NCBI GenBank assembly: GCA_030587475.2
Contig: JAUQYZ020000251.1
Location: 1-17,719 of the forward strand
Origin: Candidatus Sigynarchaeum calidifontis
Lineage (GTDB): Archaea; Asgardarchaeota; Lokiarchaeia; Sigyniarchaeales; Sigyniarchaeaceae
Reading direction: 5' to 3'
DNA length: 17,719 nucleotides
The position numbers and the translations under genes are program-made. The notes under the pieces are model-generated. The model was given only the letters and a program-made list of their open reading frames with translations. It ran no database searches and was not told where the DNA came from. Below are positions 9,588 to 17,719 of the stretch, one piece after another; position 1 is the first letter of the stretch; each line of letters starts with the position of its first letter.

Positions 9588-10079
9588 TTACACATTATCG
9601 ATATGCGAAAATCTCTCAAGCACCAAAAAAAAAAAAGGGATCGGGCATGTCGCGCATCAAAATTGAAGGGGAAACGAGCCATCCGACAGAAATCATCGCA
9701 CGGGACGTCGTGCACGCAGTGATCGGACGCCTTGCAGCGATCAAGGAAACCCTTCGATCGATGCCGACCTTGCCATGTTTCACGAAAAATACAAGCATTC
9801 AGATGAAGAATTCCTTTATTTGTTTAATAAAGGCGAACTCTTCGATGAAGATGATTTTTTCGCCTGAGAAGGCTCGTTAAAGATCGTGCGCGCCAACAAG
9901 CTGAAGCCACGGCTCAAGTTCTTGGTGAAGCCGTGACGATCTTGCCAGCCCGCCGAGGAAGTCGGTCGATTATCGTTTCGCTAAATTGCCACCCATTATC
10001 ATAAAACGGGTATCCAACTTTTTATATGTACATCCGGTTCGATATCATGAACATCCGAACAACATTCATGAGGTCTAGA

Positions 10080-10313
10080 ATGGCAAGGAGCAAGGTATCC
10101 GTGGTCAACCGGAAGGGCATGATCACGATCCCGGCGGATATGAGGGAAAGGTTCAATTTACATGAAGGATCACGGGTAATCGTCATGGAAATCGATGGCC
10201 ATCTCGAGATCGTTCCAATCGTCGACATAGAGAAATTTAGAGCGCATTCTTATGCCGAATACTCGAAATCCGAAGACGAAACACGAGCGCTCGACCTGGA
10301 GCTAGAAAAATGA
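10080..10313 (+). CDS. vapB: AbrB/MazE/SpoVT-family antitoxin (VapB)
   Basis: VNRKGMITIPADMRERFNLHEG swapped-hairpin motif; stop overlaps the start of the PIN gene; TTTATAT box near 10021. Confidence 0.88.
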   Translation: MARSKVSVVNRKGMITIPADMRERFNLHEGSRVIVMEIDGHLEIVPIVDIEKFRAHSYAEYSKSEDETRALDLELEK

Positions 10314-10738
10314 CAGGAACCGCTTGCTTCGACGCGGGAGTCTTTTCAATCTTTTTCTCGAAGGAATGCACCGCGAAGGTCACGAACGTCATGCAGCAGC
10401 TAAAAAAGGGCTCGCTGGCCGCGCAAGTGGTTTCACCGGTCGTGACCGAGATTTTATACCACGCATGCACTACCGAAGGAAAGGAGCGTGCCCAAATTCT
10501 CGTGAGCTCGTTGCTAGAAGACTACAACATCCACGTGATAACTCCTGACCGGGCTCTCCTGTACTCTGCCGGTATTCTACGATGCCAGCACCGCACCGCG
10601 CTGTCATACATCGATTGTATGTCGATCGCACATGCATTGAAAATGGGCATTCCCTTTCACACGACGGAGAAGAAATTGAAACAGATACCCGGTAACGTGC
10701 TCCAGCGGCTGAAGGTTGTGAAATACGAGTTGCCTTGA
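10310..10738 (+). CDS. vapC: PIN-domain ribonuclease toxin (VapC)
   Basis: FDAG, VVTEI, LSYIDC, TTEKKL acidic PIN motifs. Confidence 0.88.
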   Translation: MTGTACFDAGVFSIFFSKECTAKVTNVMQQLKKGSLAAQVVSPVVTEILYHACTTEGKERAQILVSSLLEDYNIHVITPDRALLYSAGILRCQHRTALSYIDCMSIAHALKMGIPFHTTEKKLKQIPGNVLQRLKVVKYELP

Positions 10739-11600: not shown

Positions 11601-11674
11601 GCGGGCGTCATATAGTGGCAGTATGTGGCGTCGCCAGCGCTGACACGGGGGTTCGAGTCCCCCCGCTCGCACCA
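11601..11674 (+). tRNA. trnG: tRNA-Gly(GCC), C33, encoded CCA
   Basis: Acceptor GCGGGCG/CGCTCGC, loop TC-GCC-AG, T arm GGGGG-TTCGAGT-CCCCC, ACCA. Confidence 0.9.
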
Positions 11675-11689
11675 TCGCTTCCCACGCGC

Positions 11690-11763
11690 GCGTCGGTCGT
11701 CCAACGGCAGGGCCCGGGGCCTCCAACCCCGTGACGAGGGATCATCCCCCTCCCGTCGCACCA
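11690..11763 (+). tRNA. trnG: tRNA-Gly(TCC), atypical (C33, T-loop ATCATCC)
   Basis: Acceptor GCGTCGG/CCGTCGC with one mismatch, CGGGG-CCTCCAA-CCCCG, GAGGG/CCCTC T stem, ACCA. Confidence 0.75.
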
Positions 11764-11778
11764 TCTACCATGCACCGC

Positions 11779-11852
11779 GCTCCCGTGGTCTAACCGGCAA
11801 GGATGCCAGCTTCTCAGGCTGCGAGGTCCGGGTTCAACTCCCGGCAGGAGCA
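11779..11852 (+). tRNA. trnE: tRNA-Glu(CTC)
   Basis: GCTCCCG/CAGGAGC, CAGC-TTCTCAG-GCTG, CCGGG-TTCAACT-CCCGG. Confidence 0.85.
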
Positions 11853-11888
11853 CGACCACGCGACACTAAACGACCTAACGCGACACGA

Positions 11889-11964
11889 GCTTCCATGCTC
11901 TAGCGGCCAAGGAACTTGGACTTTCAATCCACGTGCGCGGGTTCAAATCCCGCTGGAAGCTCCA
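11889..11964 (+). tRNA. trnE: tRNA-Glu(TTC)
   Basis: GCTTCCA/TGGAAGC, TGGA-CTTTCAA-TCCA, GCGGG-TTCAAAT-CCCGC, TCCA. Confidence 0.9.
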
Positions 11965-11974
11965 CTCAAAGAAA

Positions 11975-12050
11975 GGCCCGTTCGGATAGCCCGGTAATCC
12001 ACCTGGCCGTGGCCCAGGCGTCGGACGTTCAAATCGTCCACGGGTCACCA
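11975..12050 (+). tRNA. trnH: tRNA with GTG anticodon (His), atypical (C33, A73, no encoded G-1)
   Basis: GGCCCGT/ACGGGTC, CCTGG-CCGTGGC-CCAGG, GGACG-TTCAAAT-CGTCC, ACCA. Confidence 0.78.
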
Positions 12051-12063
12051 ATATCACCACCAC

Positions 12064-12136
12064 ACCCCCGTAATTCAGCGGCCCAGAAGTCGGGGCCTTG
12101 AACCCCGGAACCGTGGTTCGAATCCACGCGGGGGTA
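12064..12136 (+). tRNA. trnQ: tRNA-Gln(TTG), C33
   Basis: ACCCCCG/CGGGGGT, CGGGG-CCTTGAA-CCCCG, CGTGG-TTCGAAT-CCACG. Confidence 0.88.
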
Positions 12137-12153
12137 TGACACGCCAGCAGAAC

Positions 12154-12229
12154 TGCCCCGTGATGTAACCGGCAAACAGGCGCGCCCCTGAAGCACGCAA
12201 TGGCGGTTCGAGCCCGCTCGGGGCAACCA
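12154..12229 (+). tRNA. trnQ: tRNA-Gln(CTG), C33
   Basis: TGCCCCG/CGGGGCA, CGCGC-CCCTGAA-GCACG, GGCGG-TTCGAGC-CCGCT, ACCA. Confidence 0.85.
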
Positions 12230-12292
12230 ACCCGGCCATGACGACAAACGAGCAAACCAACCAAGTAGCGAAAAAATGCATCAACAACCGGC

Positions 12293-12366
12293 GAGGTGGT
12301 ACGATAACGGCAGTCTCGCGGTCTCCAGAACTGCGGGCGTGGGTTCAACTCCTGCCCACCTCACCA
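12293..12366 (+). tRNA. trnW: tRNA-Trp(CCA), intronless
   Basis: GAGGTGG/CCACCTC, GCGGT-CTCCAGA-ACTGC, T loop TTCAACT, ACCA. Confidence 0.85.
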
Positions 12367-12738
12367 ACAAACCAAGCGTGAACGAAATGGCAGCACGGTT
12401 AGCGTTGAAATCAACAATCCCCACGCGGCCATCGGTCGCGGTGGTGTCCTATAGCACGAGGCAGCCCATGCAAGCCAGCAGCGCGCTGAAGGTGGTCGAC
12501 GTGATTTCAAGCATCGCCGGTGATGCACGGCTCGATTTTCCCTCGGCATATCTCGTCCCGCCATTCACGGCCGAGCCGGGGTCCCTCGCGGCCTATCGCC
12601 GCTGCTTGCCGGCACCAAAGCCATCGAGACGATCCCCGAACGGCGGCGCCGCCACGATCTTTTCTTTACGCCATGGTTCACGTGAGGTCAGTTATCTTCA
12701 AAAATATCGATTCTCTTGGCTATTCCGGCAATCTTTCT

Positions 12739-12757
12739 CGAAAAAGTTTATATATCG
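12739..12757 (+). promoter_or_regulatory. Second BRE-TATA promoter within the array
   Basis: CGAAAAAGTTTATATATCG, a copy of the 11206 motif. Confidence 0.65.
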
Positions 12758-12988
12758 GTGTCGATATCAATGATCTTGCAATTCAAATGAAAAAGAATTA
12801 CCACAAACCAAAATGGTGACCCGACCAAGAGACAACGAACGAGATCGCCTGCTAGCAAGAGACGATACCGGCACCACCGAGCACGGCCGGAGACGGCTAG
12901 CAGGGGATCGCTTGCCCGCAACGGGCACGATCCAGGCTTTCTACCCACCAGGACGATCAAGACCGTACCACGCGCCCAATGACACGAC

Positions 12989-13065
12989 GGGAGTGTCGTC
13001 CAACTTCGGCAAGACGCCAGGCCGTTAACCTGGACATGCAGGTTCGACTCCTGCCACTTCCGCCA
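12989..13065 (+). tRNA. trnN: tRNA-Asn(GTT), C33
   Basis: GGGAGTG/CACTTCC, CCAGG-CCGTTAA-CCTGG, GCAGG-TTCGACT-CCTGC, GCCA. Confidence 0.9.
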
Positions 13066-13083
13066 CCCGATCCCATTATCCAT

Positions 13084-13207
13084 GCGCCAGTAGCTTAGCA
13101 CATGATCTCCATCCCGTCCTTGCCAAGCGAAGTGCCACGGAGATTACATCGGATAAAGCATTTGTTTCACGAGCAAATAATCGTTGGTTCGATTCCAACC
13201 TGGCGCA
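13084..13207 (+). tRNA. trnV: tRNA-Val(CAC) with a ~50-nt structured D-loop insertion (about 13100-13148) carrying the repeated RNA motif
   Basis: GCGCCAG/CTGGCGC, D stem GCTT/AAGC, TTTGT-TTCACGA-GCAAA, GTTGG-TTCGATT-CCAAC; insert closed by ATCTCC/GGAGAT. Confidence 0.82.
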
Positions 13208-13222
13208 TCAATTTTTCTCCTT

Positions 13223-13296
13223 GGAAGCGTGGTGTAACGGCAGCACTTCGCACTGTCAGCGCGAGAATCGGGGTTAAATTCCCCGCGCTTCCGCCA
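13223..13296 (+). tRNA. trnD: tRNA-Asp(GTC), T-loop TTAAATT
   Basis: GGAAGCG/CGCTTCC, TCGCA-CTGTCAG-CGCGA, CGGGG/CCCCG, GCCA. Confidence 0.85.
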
Positions 13297-13594
13297 CCAT
13301 CGCTCGTTCGTGGGCTAAAATCGTTCTCCCCCCATTCCACGAAAAACATTAGTAATGGAGCGTCGATGGATATTCTTGGTTGATAACATGTGTGCAAATC
13401 GGTTTGACAAAAGCGCCGAGAATGAAGTCCGCAAGTAACAAATTTACACGGGAAATCTTCGCATGATGAAAGAAAAGCCGATAAATGGCACCGATCCTTC
13501 CCGATAGCCACGTGCCCAAGATATCTATCGGGGGCGACGTGAAGCGCCTGGCGAGAAAATTCGACGAGCAAAGGGGTTTCAAGGAGTCTTGAAT

Positions 13595-14155
13595 TCAATC
13601 GCACAACAAGCCGTTCCAGGTCTGGATGCATTCCTCCTTCGAGACATCGAATGCCTTCTCTACCTTGCTCCAGTCCGTTTGCGCCATGATGCCCTGCTTG
13701 TACCGCGAGTTGATGAACCGGGCGAGGTCGCGCGGTAATTGCTCGTTACTCGTGAAAATGTCGATGCAGAAAACGTGGTTCGATGCCTTGTCATAGACGA
13801 AGCCGGCTGTCTTCTCCGTGATGCTTATCAAGAGCTTGGCAGTCGGGGAAAAGAAGTAAAAATCGTTCATCATCTTCTCCTTGTGGATGAGGTAGCACGG
13901 GGAATCCCGGAGTTCCTTGATCGTGTCGATTGGTTTAACTCGCTGCAATTTCAAGGCCTCCTCCATGAAAGCCATGGTAAAAAGGACCACGTCGGCAATG
14001 GGCAAGGGGCGTGCAACAAGAACCGGGAACGGCACGACAACCCACTCGATCAACTTCGGCAGCAAGATGAGGCGTTCTGGCTGCCAGAAAAGCGACGCCA
14101 CCGGGTCATCGGGCAAGCCGAGGTCGTTCGCCTCGATTTCCAGCAGTTCGGCCAT
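13595..14155 (-). CDS. Hypothetical protein, antisense within the tRNA array
   Basis: Open frame with globular-protein composition (MAELLEIEANDLGLPDDP...ECIQTWNGLLCD). ATG 14155 preferred because the upstream ATG (14245) abuts tRNA-Phe. Confidence 0.7.
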   Translation of the reverse strand: MAELLEIEANDLGLPDDPVASLFWQPERLILLPKLIEWVVVPFPVLVARPLPIADVVLFTMAFMEEALKLQRVKPIDTIKELRDSPCYLIHKEKMMNDFYFFSPTAKLLISITEKTAGFVYDKASNHVFCIDIFTSNEQLPRDLARFINSRYKQGIMAQTDWSKVEKAFDVSKEECIQTWNGLLCD

Positions 14156-14246
14156 CGGTAACGAGACTTCATCCACCATGATCGTTGGATAGACCGAGGC
14201 CAAGGCATTTAATTGTATCATTGTGCGCTGGCAGACCATTATCATT

Positions 14247-14323
14247 GCAGTGATAGGCTAGCTGGGAAACCGCCCGGCTGAAAACCGGGACGTCGAGTGG
14301 TTCGAGTCCACTTCACTGCACCA
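14247..14323 (+). tRNA. trnF: tRNA-Phe(GAA)
   Basis: GCAGTGA/TCACTGC, CCCGG-CTGAAAA-CCGGG, AGTGG-TTCGAGT-CCACT, ACCA. Confidence 0.9.
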
Positions 14324-14348
14324 CCTTCCAATTCCACGTCGTACCTGC

Positions 14349-14428
14349 GAGCTCGTCGCCTAGCCAGGCAAGGGCAGCGGGCTTTTAACCCGTCTAGTTT
14401 GCGAGTTCAAATCTCGCCGAGCTCGCCA
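14349..14428 (+). tRNA. trnK: tRNA-Lys(TTT), 7-nt variable loop
   Basis: GAGCTCG/CGAGCTC, GCGGG-CTTTTAA-CCCGT, GCGAG-TTCAAAT-CTCGC, GCCA. Confidence 0.9.
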
Positions 14429-14477
14429 TTCTTTCTACAAATTCGAGGTGATTGACCGAGTAAGCCAACATCCACGA

Positions 14478-14610
14478 GGGCGGCCGCCGCCGTGCATCCG
14501 GGCCCGTGTTTCCACAACTGTCCTCTCCGAGAGGTGCCGTGGAAACTACATCGGCCACAGACTGTGAATCTGCATAGCCTCCTTGCCCGGCACAAAGGCG
14601 GCGGCCGCCC
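14478..14610 (+). ncRNA. Candidate Y-RNA-like ncRNA A (133 nt)
   Basis: Perfect 14-bp terminal stem GGGCGGCCGCCGCC/GGCGGCGGCCGCCC, inner GTG/CAC and CCGGG/CCCGG, conserved motif 14505-14554, anticodon-like arm CAGA-CTGTGAA-TCTG. Confidence 0.72.
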
Positions 14611-14691
14611 GTTATCCACCGCGATGATTCGAGGGGCACCACGACACGCGTGGCCCGATTCGGGCCACCACTTCTCTCCCCATTAGTCTTC

Positions 14692-14771
14692 GGGCTTGTC
14701 TCCTAGCCAGGCCAGGGAGGCGGACTCTTAATCCGCTCGTACCGCGAGTTCGATTCTCGCCAAGCCCACCA
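14692..14771 (+). tRNA. trnK: tRNA-Lys(CTT), 7-nt variable loop
   Basis: GGGCTTG/CAAGCCC, GCGGA-CTCTTAA-TCCGC, GCGAG-TTCGATT-CTCGC, ACCA. Confidence 0.9.
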
Positions 14772-15156
14772 AATATTCGTTGATACCCAAAATTCGCCGC
14801 CCGGAGCATTACCACCTGGAGTACGCGAGTGCAATGCTCGCCCGGGCGTGAAACGCTTGCCACCACGCGCCGCGGGGCGCTACCGGGGGGTTCTCACCGC
14901 CAAGTCCCCGTCCAGCGATCGCCTGCAGCGCCCGGTTCCAAGCAGGCTCGTTTTCCCCGGCGCGCCCGTCGGTGCGAGGCGCGCCGGAGCCCATCCCTTT
15001 CACGATCCATGCACGATTCTCGGTCCAAAAACGGCCAATTTCCCGCCGGAAGCACACGCCGCCTGTCGTAGCGGGTGAAAGCCCCGCGCAGGCGAACATG
15101 GATGCATCGGGCATCCAGGTTACCAACAACTGCGACCCACCCGGTCGCATTCCCCC

Positions 15157-15301
15157 GCATAGACGCAGCCGTGGACACGCGGAAGGGGGCCACGTGTTTC
15201 TGCATCCTGTCCTTCGCAAGGAGGTGCCGCGGAAACTACATCGTCACTCGAAAAGACGCTCCGGCCCCACACCGCGCCACAAGGGCTGTCTCGTGCAACC
15301 A
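15157..15301 (+). ncRNA. Candidate Y-RNA-like ncRNA B (~145 nt, ends in ACCA)
   Basis: Nested stems AGAC..AGCC/GGCTGTCT, GTGG/CCAC, GCGG/CCGC, GGGGCC/GGCCCC; conserved motif 15193-15243 with a compensatory change relative to ncRNA A and a GCAA tetraloop. Confidence 0.72.
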
Positions 15302-15357
15302 ATTTTTCGCACGTGATGGAAAACAACGACAGCACCAATCGCAACACCTGCGAAACG

Positions 15358-15379
15358 ACTGTCCTCGAACAAGAGGTGA
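15358..15379 (+). promoter_or_regulatory. Shine-Dalgarno (GAGGTGA) of the Ro60 gene inside a copy of the motif's apical hairpin
   Basis: ACTGT-CCTC-GAACAA-GAGG-TGA, about 10 nt before ATG 15389; compare AACTGT-CCTC-TCCGA-GAGG-TGCC in ncRNA A. Confidence 0.6.
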
Positions 15380-15388
15380 AAAAACAAT

Positions 15389-16948
15389 ATGGCAAGAAGC
15401 AAGTTCGGCAAGAAGGCTTCGATCGCGACCGACTATGGCGACGCTGACACCAGGAACTACGAGGCCTTCCCTGCCTGGTCGATGCCGCTCGACGAGCAAT
15501 TCCGCCAGCTCGCCTTCAACGGCATCATCGCGCACCAGTTCTACTGCAGCGAGGACGAGATCCTCCGGAGGGGCATGGGCATCATCGACAAGTTCGTCAA
15601 GGAAAACCCGGCGAAAGCGCTCGAGATCGCCGCGACCGCGCGCAACGAGGGCTTCATCCGTTCGGTCAACATCACCACGCTCGCCAAGGCAAGCACCAGC
15701 ACCGGGGCATTCAAGGAGTACTTCGACAAGATCGTCCTCACCCCGCGGGACATGGTGCAGTTCATCGACGTGATGCGCGCGAGCCGCGGCCTCGGCCGTG
15801 CCATCAAGGAGACCATGAACAAGTGGGTCGCGGCCAAGCTCGACGAGTTCTGGGCGATCAAGTATCGCAACCAGCTCCAGGACAGCATCCGGCTCGGTCA
15901 CGCCAAGTTCGACGACGAGGCCAAGGCCATGCTCGCCGACTATGTCATGGAGAACGGCGAGCAGGCGAAGCGCGACGCCATCGTGGCACGCTTCCCGGCC
16001 ATCAACGCGGTTGAAATGCTCAAGCGCATCAACCCGCTCGTCGACGAGGGTCGCGCCATCGATCTCATCACCGCGGCCCGCCTCGATTGGAACGTGGTCA
16101 AGGGCATCTTCCACCCGACCCCGGACATCTGGAAGGCCCTCGCGGAGCAGATGTCGGCCATTGCCCTCGTCCAGAACATCGCGTCGATCGAGAGGAACGC
16201 GGGCGCCGACTTCGCGCTCGATATCGTCAAGCGCAAGGTCACCGCGGAGTTTCTCAGGCGCGGCAAGGTCTTCCCGTTCACCCTCGCGCAGGCCTACATG
16301 CACGTCAACGACCGAGCCCTCAAGTCCGCCATCGGCAAGGTGCTCGACTCGCTGGCCCTCGCGCACGACTTCAGCAAGCTCGGCCGCGTCGCCGTGTGCC
16401 CGGACGTCAGCGGCTCGATGACCAGCCCGAGCTTCATCAACATCGTTATGCAACGTGCAAGCGGCAAAGGTGGCAAAGGTGACATCCCGGAGGGCAGCAT
16501 GCACGTGCCCATCCAGGTCGCGGCCATGATCGCGGGCATCCTCGCCGGCGCCACCCGCCACTCGCGGCTCCTCGCGTGGGACACCGAGGTCATGGACGAG
16601 CGCGCCCTCTTCGGCAAGGACAAGGAGTGGCGCACCCCGACCCGCATCATGGAGCGACTCATGCGCATCACCGGCGGCGGCACCTTCATGGAGGCCCCGG
16701 TCAAGTACCTCGTCGAGCACCGCGTCGACGTCGACACGTTCGTCCTCGTCACCGACTCGGAGGAGTGGGGCGAGGGTTGGCTCGCCTACTGGAAGAAATA
16801 CAAGCAGTCGCACAAGGCCGCGCGGGCGTTCCTCGTCAGGGTCGACCTCTACCCGACCCGCCCGTTCGGTGGCGACGACTGCGAGCGGCTTGGCATCACG
16901 CAGATCTACGGCTTCAGCGAGATGGCCTTCAAGGTCATGCTCCAGTAA
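15389..16948 (+). CDS. rsr: Ro60/Rsr-like TROVE-domain RNA-binding protein with C-terminal vWA domain
   Basis: N-terminal 'NYEAFPAW', QFY, 'ARNEG.IRS', 'GLGRAIK..WV', 'IKYRN..D.IRLGH', 'ALVQNI', 'VFPF' TROVE motifs; MIDAS DVSGSM, GGT, VTDSE; 519 aa. Confidence 0.9.
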   Translation: MARSKFGKKASIATDYGDADTRNYEAFPAWSMPLDEQFRQLAFNGIIAHQFYCSEDEILRRGMGIIDKFVKENPAKALEIAATARNEGFIRSVNITTLAKASTSTGAFKEYFDKIVLTPRDMVQFIDVMRASRGLGRAIKETMNKWVAAKLDEFWAIKYRNQLQDSIRLGHAKFDDEAKAMLADYVMENGEQAKRDAIVARFPAINAVEMLKRINPLVDEGRAIDLITAARLDWNVVKGIFHPTPDIWKALAEQMSAIALVQNIASIERNAGADFALDIVKRKVTAEFLRRGKVFPFTLAQAYMHVNDRALKSAIGKVLDSLALAHDFSKLGRVAVCPDVSGSMTSPSFINIVMQRASGKGGKGDIPEGSMHVPIQVAAMIAGILAGATRHSRLLAWDTEVMDERALFGKDKEWRTPTRIMERLMRITGGGTFMEAPVKYLVEHRVDVDTFVLVTDSEEWGEGWLAYWKKYKQSHKAARAFLVRVDLYPTRPFGGDDCERLGITQIYGFSEMAFKVMLQ

Positions 16949-16977
16949 GCCGGCAAGCCGCCACGTCGAAAACCAGT

Positions 16978-16988
16978 TTCCTTTTTTT
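16978..16988 (+). terminator. Possible oligo-T terminator after the Ro60 gene
   Basis: TTTCCTTTTTTT about 30 nt past the stop codon. Confidence 0.35.
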
Positions 16989-17007
16989 CCCAACAACGAC
17001 TATCGAA

Positions 17008-17082
17008 GCAAGGATGGCCCAGTCGCCCGGCAGCGTCCTGATAAGGCGCCTCACGCAGGTTCAATCCCTGCTCCTTGCACCA
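17008..17082 (+). tRNA. trnI: tRNA-Ile(GAT), D-loop lacks GG
   Basis: GCAAGGA/TCCTTGC, GCGTC-CTGATAA-GGCGC, GCAGG-TTCAATC-CCTGC, ACCA. Confidence 0.82.
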
Positions 17083-17104
17083 ATCCCGCGTTTTATCGAT
17101 CCAC

Positions 17105-17177
17105 GGGTTCAGAGCTCGAGCGGCAGAGCAACGGTCCAGTAAACCGTTTGGTGTGGGTTCGAGCCCCACTGGGCCCC
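17105..17177 (+). tRNA. trnT: tRNA-Thr(AGT), atypical (A34, C33, G8)
   Basis: GGGTTCA/TGGGCCC, D stem GCTC/GAGC, ACGGT-CCAGTAA-ACCGT, GTGGG-TTCGAGC-CCCAC. Confidence 0.78.
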
Positions 17178-17217
17178 CTTGCATGCTCATCAAGAAAGCG
17201 GAACAAGTAGCAGTAAC

Positions 17218-17295
17218 GGGCTCGTAGTTCTAACCGGATAGAACGCTTGGCTCGCATCCGAGAGGCTTGGGGTTCGAGTCCCCACGAGTCCGCCA
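17218..17295 (+). tRNA. trnA: tRNA-Ala(CGC)
   Basis: GGGCTCG/CGAGTCC with G3:U70, CTTGG-CTCGCAT-CCGAG, TGGGG-TTCGAGT-CCCCA, GCCA. Confidence 0.88.
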
Positions 17296-17299
17296 ACAC

Positions 17300-17373
17300 G
17301 TGCGGGTAGTCTTAACCTGGCAAAACCACCGGTTTGCAACCGGATGACTCGGGGTTCAAATTTCAACCCAATA
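17300..17373 (+). pseudogene. Degenerate tRNA-Ala(TGC)
   Basis: CCGG-TTTGCAA-CCGG arm and GGTTCAAAT are intact, but the T stem and acceptor stem are largely unpaired. Confidence 0.6.
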
Positions 17374-17466
17374 TATAGGCTGGATGGATGTCCCCGCCCG
17401 TACACTTCTCGAGGAATCCATACGGGAGACTCGCCAGGCGGGTCCACATTGCAGCATTCTTTCAGC

Positions 17467-17545
17467 GGGGACGTGGTCTAGCGGCACATATGATCCCGGC
17501 TTCGGAAGCCGGTGCACGGCGGTTCGAATCCGCCCGTTCCCACCA
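17467..17545 (+). tRNA. trnP: tRNA-Pro(CGG)
   Basis: GGGGACG/CGTTCCC, CCGGC-TTCGGAA-GCCGG, GGCGG-TTCGAAT-CCGCC, ACCA. Confidence 0.9.
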
Positions 17546-17552
17546 AAACCAT

Positions 17553-17648
17553 GGAACCGTAGCTTAACCGGGAAAGTGGTTTCATCCACACCGACAGCCC
17601 CCGACCGAAGCTCGGGCGTTCGGCGATCGAGGCGCCGCGGTTCCACCA
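17553..17648 (+). tRNA. tRNA-like gene (GAA anticodon, C33) with a ~21-nt D-region insertion and T-loop ATCGAGG
   Basis: GGAACCG/CGGTTCC+ACCA, CCCGA-CCGAAGC-TCGGG, CGGCG-ATCGAGG-CGCCG; extra hairpin GTGG-TTTCAT-CCAC. Confidence 0.7.
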
Positions 17649-17653
17649 TTTCC

Positions 17654-17719
17654 GGGGCCGTATTCTAGCGGTCGAAGATCCGGGCTTTGGGAGCCCGATG
17701 TCGTTGGTTCGAATCCAAC
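17654..17719 (+). tRNA. trnP: tRNA-Pro(TGG), truncated by the window end
   Basis: GGGGCCG start, CGGGC-TTTGGGA-GCCCG, GTTGG-TTCGAAT-CCAAC. Confidence 0.85.

Follow-up and report, generated by a model that had tools for sequence, protein, structure and literature searches.

A hairpin resembling the Ro60-binding helix of Y RNAs at the Shine-Dalgarno sequence of an archaeal Ro60 gene: a candidate translational operator

We identified a conserved RNA hairpin in the leader of the gene for the RNA-binding protein Ro60 in Candidatus Sigynarchaeum calidifontis. The gene lies on a contig of 17,719 nucleotides, C212 of a 5.0-Mb genome, which was analyzed over its whole length and is called the window here. 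The hairpin reproduces the helix of the neighbouring Y-like RNAs that is predicted to be bound by Ro60, and its 3' strand is the Shine-Dalgarno (SD) sequence of the Ro60 gene. From comparison of sequences we consider it probable, though well short of certain, that the hairpin is a selected minimal copy of this helix and acts as a translational operator. A fuller proposal is more tentative, and we would put it slightly below an even chance: a Y RNA forms part of the Ro60 transcript itself, from which it is cut as a tRNA-type intron in circular, permuted form, the Ro-binding strand is at the same time the SD sequence, and surplus Ro60 stops its own translation, so that Ro60 and its circular Y RNA would form a module that balances itself.

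The leader hairpin and its conservation

The leader sequence ACTGTCCTC (15358-15366) is followed by a six-nucleotide loop, the strand GAGGTGA and, after a spacer of 9 nt, the ATG of Ro60 (15389-15391; Table 1). A sequence-only reading of this DNA had described a hairpin ahead of the Ro60 start that repeats the pattern of non-coding RNA (ncRNA) A. The pattern is present as described at 15358-15379, and the outer stem and the TACATCG element of the ncRNAs are missing from the leader, as that reading had also stated. It had placed the hairpin directly before the ATG; the order is right, but the 9-nt spacer, a normal SD distance, lies between them. Similarly, the TGTCCTC core is conserved but the leading AC of ACTGT varies among orthologues. 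The TGTCCTC arm corresponds by homology to the 3' strand of YrlA's Ro-binding helix (consensus UGUCG). The proposal that the other strand is the SD sequence proved correct: because the 16S rRNA of this genome ends in GGAUCACCUCC (G000:C10), GAGGUGA is a true 7-bp SD. The predicted folding energy of the hairpin is -5.4 kcal/mol compared with -11.7 kcal/mol for the SD:anti-SD duplex, and since it is the weaker of the two the hairpin alone should not block initiation.

The hairpin pattern occurs three times in the window, in RNA A, RNA B and the leader, where 0.03 occurrences are expected, and a stricter form of it is found twice in the whole 5-Mb genome, both times at the Ro60 locus. The identical 9-mer of ncRNA A is at 14517-14525 and its GAGGTG at 14531-14536, while the core of ncRNA B spans 15208-15226. 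An RNA contig from a relative places the element resembling the Y RNA helix on the mRNA, overlapping the initiation region.

All 14 positions of the TGTCCTC and GAGGTGA arms are invariant in five orthologous leaders (68-89% protein identity; comparison loci carry L numbers), in which only 7 of 56 positions of the upstream spacer are kept and the loop varies in length. Two loci at 54% identity (L007 and L012) retain the hairpin. Equivalent SD hairpins are found in four lineages that lie apart in the Ro60 tree, namely Sigynarchaeota-like (7 loci), Freyarchaeota-like (L013, L107 and L015), L110, and Herpetosiphonaceae (5 loci). Conservation upstream of orthologous TROVE genes, which the sequence-only reading had named as a check, exceeds the demands of the SD, extends to the unpaired TGT and recurs in distant lineages. 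With a profile built from the ncRNA arms only, 13 of 20 leaders in the clade score at least 7.9 bits compared with 3 among 329 other genes that share this SD, counts that overstate independence because the loci are related, so that the number of lineages outweighs the nominal P value. Among phage loci fetched afterwards and thus held out, L233 scores 11.3 bits and L234 and L236 repeat the variant of their own ncRNA; the leader copy is absent from L235 and L237.

Because CCTC is forced by pairing with GAGG, the unpaired triplet is the informative part of the arm. It mostly tracks the ncRNAs of the same locus, being TGT in the Sigynarchaeota-like loci and L110, AGT in L015 and L233, and xTT in Chloroflexi. 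CACCTC, a better SD complement, is used by no leader examined. Among control SD leaders 78 of 305 can form at least 4 bp at the SD, and one of 24 control hairpins from the genome with CC and at least 4 bp has Y-like outer bases.

The position of the copy differs in a few loci. In L002, L109, L111 and L112 the start codon is preceded, at a distance of 3-25 nt, by the end of a whole Y RNA; L002 and L112 were first taken as leader hairpins and were reassigned to the 3' strand of a whole Y RNA. In L035 the helix copy lies ~40 nt upstream of the SD. The reverse search, for the leader pattern in viral contigs, was uninformative, as none of the 80 loci read had a Ro60 gene and chance matches dominate. 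A palindromic operator at the DNA level was ruled out by the spacer of 4-21 nt and by G-U pairs. The Ro60 leaders of Lentisphaerae (L017, L019, L020 and L021) have another conserved hairpin, TTGCCCG ... CGGGCTG, ~30 nt before the start and just upstream of the SD, which is possibly an alternative operator.

Table 1. Features of the Ro60 locus in window coordinates
Feature	Position	Strand	Basis
Leader hairpin, 5' arm TGTCCTC	15360..15366	+	7/7 invariant in 5 orthologues; Rfam YrlA alignment of relatives
Leader hairpin, loop GAACAA, variable (4 to ~21 nt elsewhere)	15367..15372	+	Comparison of loci
SD sequence GAGGTGA, also homologue of the conserved Ro-contacted Y RNA strand	15373..15379	+	Anti-SD in G000:C10
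Bulge-helix-bulge of B, 5' half: helix GTGG 15171-15174, bulge ACA 15175-15177	15166..15182	+	15166-15181 invariant 16/16
Bulge-helix-bulge of B, 3' half: helix CCAC 15277-15280, bulge AAG 15281-15283	15272..15288	+	Conservation, compensatory changes
Ro60/TROVE-vWA protein, 519 aa	15389..16948	+	Pfam PF05731 and PF25045
ncRNA A, predicted permuted Y RNA, 98 nt; helix copy 14519-14536, TACATCG 14547-14553	14498..14595	+	Canonical bulge-helix-bulge (14492-14498 / 14590-14596), also in L006 and L011
ncRNA B, predicted permuted Y RNA, 106 nt, inferred intron of the Ro60 leader; helix copy 15208-15226, TACATCG 15237-15243	15177..15282	+	Conserved bulge-helix-bulge, RNA joint
RNA C, tRNA-Val-shaped; helix variant and TACATCG inserted in D-loop	13084..13207	+	Orthologues in L011 and L012

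Y-like RNAs beside the Ro60 gene

The sequence GAGGTR, followed after 9-12 nt by TACATCG-like bases, is found beside Ro60 throughout one subclade of the family. This subclade covers Asgard archaea, Chloroflexi, Lentisphaerae and viruses, and the Ro60 of the window is a member of it; proteobacterial Ro60s carry CGAATG-type RNAs instead, with rare exceptions. Proteobacterial YrlA reads GGCGAATGCC ... CTACATC with the 3' strand TTGTCGCC, and the type seen in the window reads GAGGTGCC ... CTACATC with TGTCCTC. Where YrlA has GNCGAAUG, the homologous position here holds GAGGUG, and the opposite strand carries a change that compensates for it. As judged from this alignment, the window helix is the Ro-binding helix of YrlA with a C-G to G-C swap and the loss of two A's.

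Relatives with the terminal topology match the Rfam YrlA family (RF02553) at 35-48 bits (E down to 1e-7), below the gathering score of the family, 69 bits, and their alignments place both strands on the Ro-binding helix. On the window Rfam finds tRNAs only and no RF02553 match. According to Chen et al. (PMC4201824), GNCGAAN0-1G is the strand of YrlA recognized by Rsr. RNAs A and B do not reach 69 bits, and have neither GNCGAAN0-1G near the 5' end nor the tRNA-like D and T arms of YrlA; both arms are present in RNA C and in the relatives L013, L015 and L110. In the broad sense of ncRNAs that lie beside Ro60 on the same strand and share a homologous Ro helix, they belong to the Y RNAs, and we classify A and B on their sequences as permuted, divergent Y-like RNAs of the YrlA type that fall outside RF02553. 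Because the helix aligns with the Ro-binding helix, what the leader copies is the part of the Y RNA predicted to be gripped by Ro60. In the subclade of the window, the putative Ro-bound strand of the Y RNA is itself an SD sequence. A pairing of the TGT or AGT of the arm with TACATCG or TACTTCG was considered and dropped, as it breaks in L002 and in RNA C.

Apparent splicing of RNA B out of the Ro60 leader

RNA B is flanked by a motif of the bulge-helix-bulge (BHB) type with a 4-bp helix and two 3-nt bulges, which shows no change in L004, L006, L008 and L011, four loci that all keep the insert in their DNA. The chance expectation of such a motif is 0.03 per 1.1 kb. The stems flanking A and B show compensatory changes between the two RNAs, and RNA C has no canonical BHB. 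Four metatranscriptome runs were compared with the locus; the matching contigs come from relatives, and the junction data from two runs of one study. These contigs cover the leader and the coding region. In one of them (run X4, 1,093 nt) position 15176 is linked to 15283 with no microhomology, and the contig runs on through the hairpin to 16324; in run X2 the same upstream exon appears as a loose end at 15283. The joint 15176/15283 falls on the second bases of the two BHB bulges, the predicted sites of cleavage by the tRNA splicing endonuclease. The genome encodes both EndA and RtcB.

Intron B is hardly covered in the RNA contigs of the relatives, and no back-junction was seen in them. The metatranscriptome contigs do not cover A, C or the tRNAs, an absence that carries no evidential weight. 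No joined, intron-less B was found among 154 genomes of the order, a weak test since almost none of them hold the locus. Circularisation of BHB introns is known from archaea, where such introns can also occur in 5' untranslated regions (UTRs; PMC7714728; PMC4731332). RNA B is, we infer, an intron of 106 nt within the Ro60 leader. It is probably released as a circle, which would explain its permuted layout, and A and B are both predicted to be circular permuted Y RNAs. GC-rich structured stretches are also found at 14800-14970 and 15075-15150, between the tRNA-Lys gene and RNA B, with similar ones in L006, L008 and L011; part of this sequence falls within the upstream exon of the transcript.

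Possible autoregulation and alternative explanations

In the autoregulation that we propose, Ro60 would bind the helix wherever it occurs. The Y RNAs A, B and C, which have longer stems and UACAUCG, would bind more tightly and soak up the supply, and surplus Ro60 would clamp the weak hairpin over the SD and block 30S loading. One B RNA, probably in circular form, would come free from every transcript that is spliced, coupling the supply of Ro60 to that of Y RNA. Translational autoregulation had been suggested from the sequence alone, and the suggestion gains from the conservation of the hairpin in orthologues and from the alignment of its helix with the Ro-binding helix of YrlA; the whole Y RNAs that abut the start codon in four loci also favour it.

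Besides the relatedness of the loci, several observations weigh against this proposal. About one-third of the loci in the clade are without an SD copy (Lentisphaerae/Kiritimatiellae, L018, L031, L036, L235 and L237), and the leaders of L013 and L107 deviate from the triplet of their own ncRNAs (ATT vs AGT). When long upstream context is included in the fold, the outer C-G pair of the hairpin competes with another stem. Binding of the GAGGUG-type helix by Ro60 is predicted from homology, and the canonical CGAA is absent from it; the leader is also without UACAUCG, which could belong to the recognized surface. For the intron, the splice evidence consists of one contig and one loose end, from the RNA contigs of relatives in one study.

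The same conservation would be expected if Ro60, or a complex of Ro60, Y RNA and a nuclease, binds the hairpin with mRNA decay, processing or stabilisation as the outcome. Recruitment of PNPase for decay by Rsr and Y RNA in Deinococcus (bioRxiv 10.1101/312249) and the distant copy in L035 support this explanation. However, a decay tag has no need to overlap the SD, as the copy does in nearly all loci that have it, and we regard this outcome as unlikely. We give somewhat less weight to a hairpin that dampens a strong SD independently of protein, its likeness to Y RNA coming from the shared GAGGUG. The forced CCTC and the frequency of 4-bp pairings among control SD leaders are as this would predict. 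It leaves unexplained the invariant unpaired TGT, the way in which the triplet tracks the Y RNA variant of the locus and the absence of CACCTC, and the hairpin is too weak alone to compete with the anti-SD.

It is less probable again that the leader is bound not by Ro60 but by another factor that recognizes the Y RNA helix, such as an effector or processing enzyme. The Ro site of a GAGGUG-type Y RNA is not known to have been mapped, and the second conserved element is missing from the leader, both of which would suit such a factor; yet by its position the helix is homologous to the Ro-binding helix that is known, and the motif type partitions with the Ro60 subclade. Least probable is a neutral relic of a Y RNA gene that was duplicated or decayed before the coding region. 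Whole Y RNAs abutting the start offer a route to such a stub, and L108 resembles a degenerate duplicate, but the invariance of the 5' arm contrasts with a loop and flanks that all drift and differ in length, which largely refutes a relic.

Comparison with known systems

Bacterial ribosomal proteins such as S8, L1 and S15 exert autogenous translational control by target mimicry. The archaeal protein L7Ae binds a kink-turn in its own 5' UTR, an autoregulation described in Sulfolobus (PMC5539422) that provides a precedent for a Ro60 operator. As in these systems, the Ro60 leader holds a reduced copy of the motif bound in stable RNAs, located at the initiation region. They differ in that a Y RNA is what is mimicked here, the strand presumed to be recognized is the SD itself, and the binding is predicted.

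CsrA recognizes hairpins that contain an SD-like motif, and RNAs with the same motif, such as CsrB, titrate it. The Ro60 leader would likewise share an SD-like hairpin motif with its titrating RNAs, recognition by Ro60 being predicted. However, the protein and the fold are unrelated, there is one site per RNA, and there is no sign of a genome-wide regulon.

The locus resembles those of YrlA and YrlB with Rsr (RF02553; PMC4201824), and of the phiLo Ro60 (PMC12135203), in having several RNAs beside Ro60 on the same strand. The helix, the inner stem and the CUACAUC element are common to YrlA/YrlB and the RNAs of the locus, and relatives have the full layout of T-arm, acceptor and D-arm. In contrast to YrlA and YrlB, the window has GAGGUG in place of GNCGAAUG, and its RNAs A and B are permuted, with the helix closed by a loop, without a T-arm and without an Rfam match; the host is an archaeon, and no RtcR-type promoter was seen. 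BHB-processed RNAs other than tRNAs include the permuted circular signal recognition particle RNA of Thermoproteus (PMC4731332) and the HVO_1309 5' UTR intron and cbf5 intron of Haloferax (PMC7714728). RNA B shares with these substrates a canonical 3-4-3 BHB, excision from a leader with ligation of the exons, and a predicted circular product. It differs in that a Y RNA serves as the intron and the same transcript encodes its partner protein, and the circle is predicted here.

What sets the window apart is that its host is an archaeon, that the conserved strand of the Ro helix is the SD, and that a Y RNA appears to be excised from the Ro60 leader. None of the papers searched, two key reviews of bacterial Ro60 not being among them, treats Ro60 autoregulation or Y RNAs of archaea, and an earlier description of the GAGGUG type is possible. 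In Deinococcus the free and Y-bound forms of Rsr do different jobs (bioRxiv 10.1101/312249). If the proposal is true, a 20-nt operator would make the feedback directly testable and delimit the minimal site bound in an unstudied subclade of Ro60, and a spliced, probably circular Y RNA in the leader would tie tRNA splicing to formation of the Ro60 ribonucleoprotein. The host group comprises the closest prokaryotic relatives of eukaryotes.

The Ro60 gene, its setting and further Y-like RNAs

The Ro60 gene sits amid an array of ~19 tRNA-like genes. Its product has the TROVE and vWA domains of the Ro60/Rsr family, in which the DxSxS of the metal ion-dependent adhesion site is invariant, and the family profile matches the solved Ro60 structures of human (E 1e-43), Xenopus, Deinococcus and phiLo. 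A homologue at 71% identity is named from Candidatus Sigynarchaeota, and further ones are from Freyarchaeota and Promethearchaeota. The profile matched 10 of 400 genomes of the phylum, most of the 400 being incomplete; a genome of the same genus (G001) holds only the C-terminus of Ro60, at a contig end. A 4-residue loop deletion in Ro60 was ruled out as the counterpart of the shortened RNA motif, because Chloroflexi members retain the long loop.

Orthologues of RNA C are found at L011:790-925 and L012:1255-1395. The anticodon is CAC in the window and TGT in L012, and because it differs between orthologues RNA C is probably not decoding. Another tRNA-shaped RNA, with the Ro module between D-arm and anticodon arm, occurs at L011:1387-1510 and is absent from the window. 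Two virus-like contigs (L109:2240-3012 and L111:370-961) have tandem arrays of 4-5 GAGGUG-type Y RNAs with A-rich spacers, the last of which ends 3-4 nt before the Ro60 ATG. In Chloroflexi and their kin (L023, L028, L031 and L036) such RNAs stand in arrays of 4-8, and many are chimeras with tRNA to which Rfam gives a tRNA score; among the organisms with such arrays Herpetosiphon aurantiacus (L029) has been cultured. The rsr loci of Ralstonia and Chitinimonas (L080:4555-4600; L085, L088) contain one RNA with an intermediate helix, TTGTCCTG ... CAGGTGCGAATG, that combines both motif types.

The tRNA array (11601-17719) runs off the end of the contig. Contig C82 (G000:C82:46-1816) starts with 11 further intron-less tRNAs and may continue it. 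One tRNA-Thr called in these tRNA regions has the anticodon AGT, which is unusual for archaea. Just upstream of the array, at 10026-10738, is a VapBC-like pair of an AbrB/MazE-type antitoxin and a PIN toxin.
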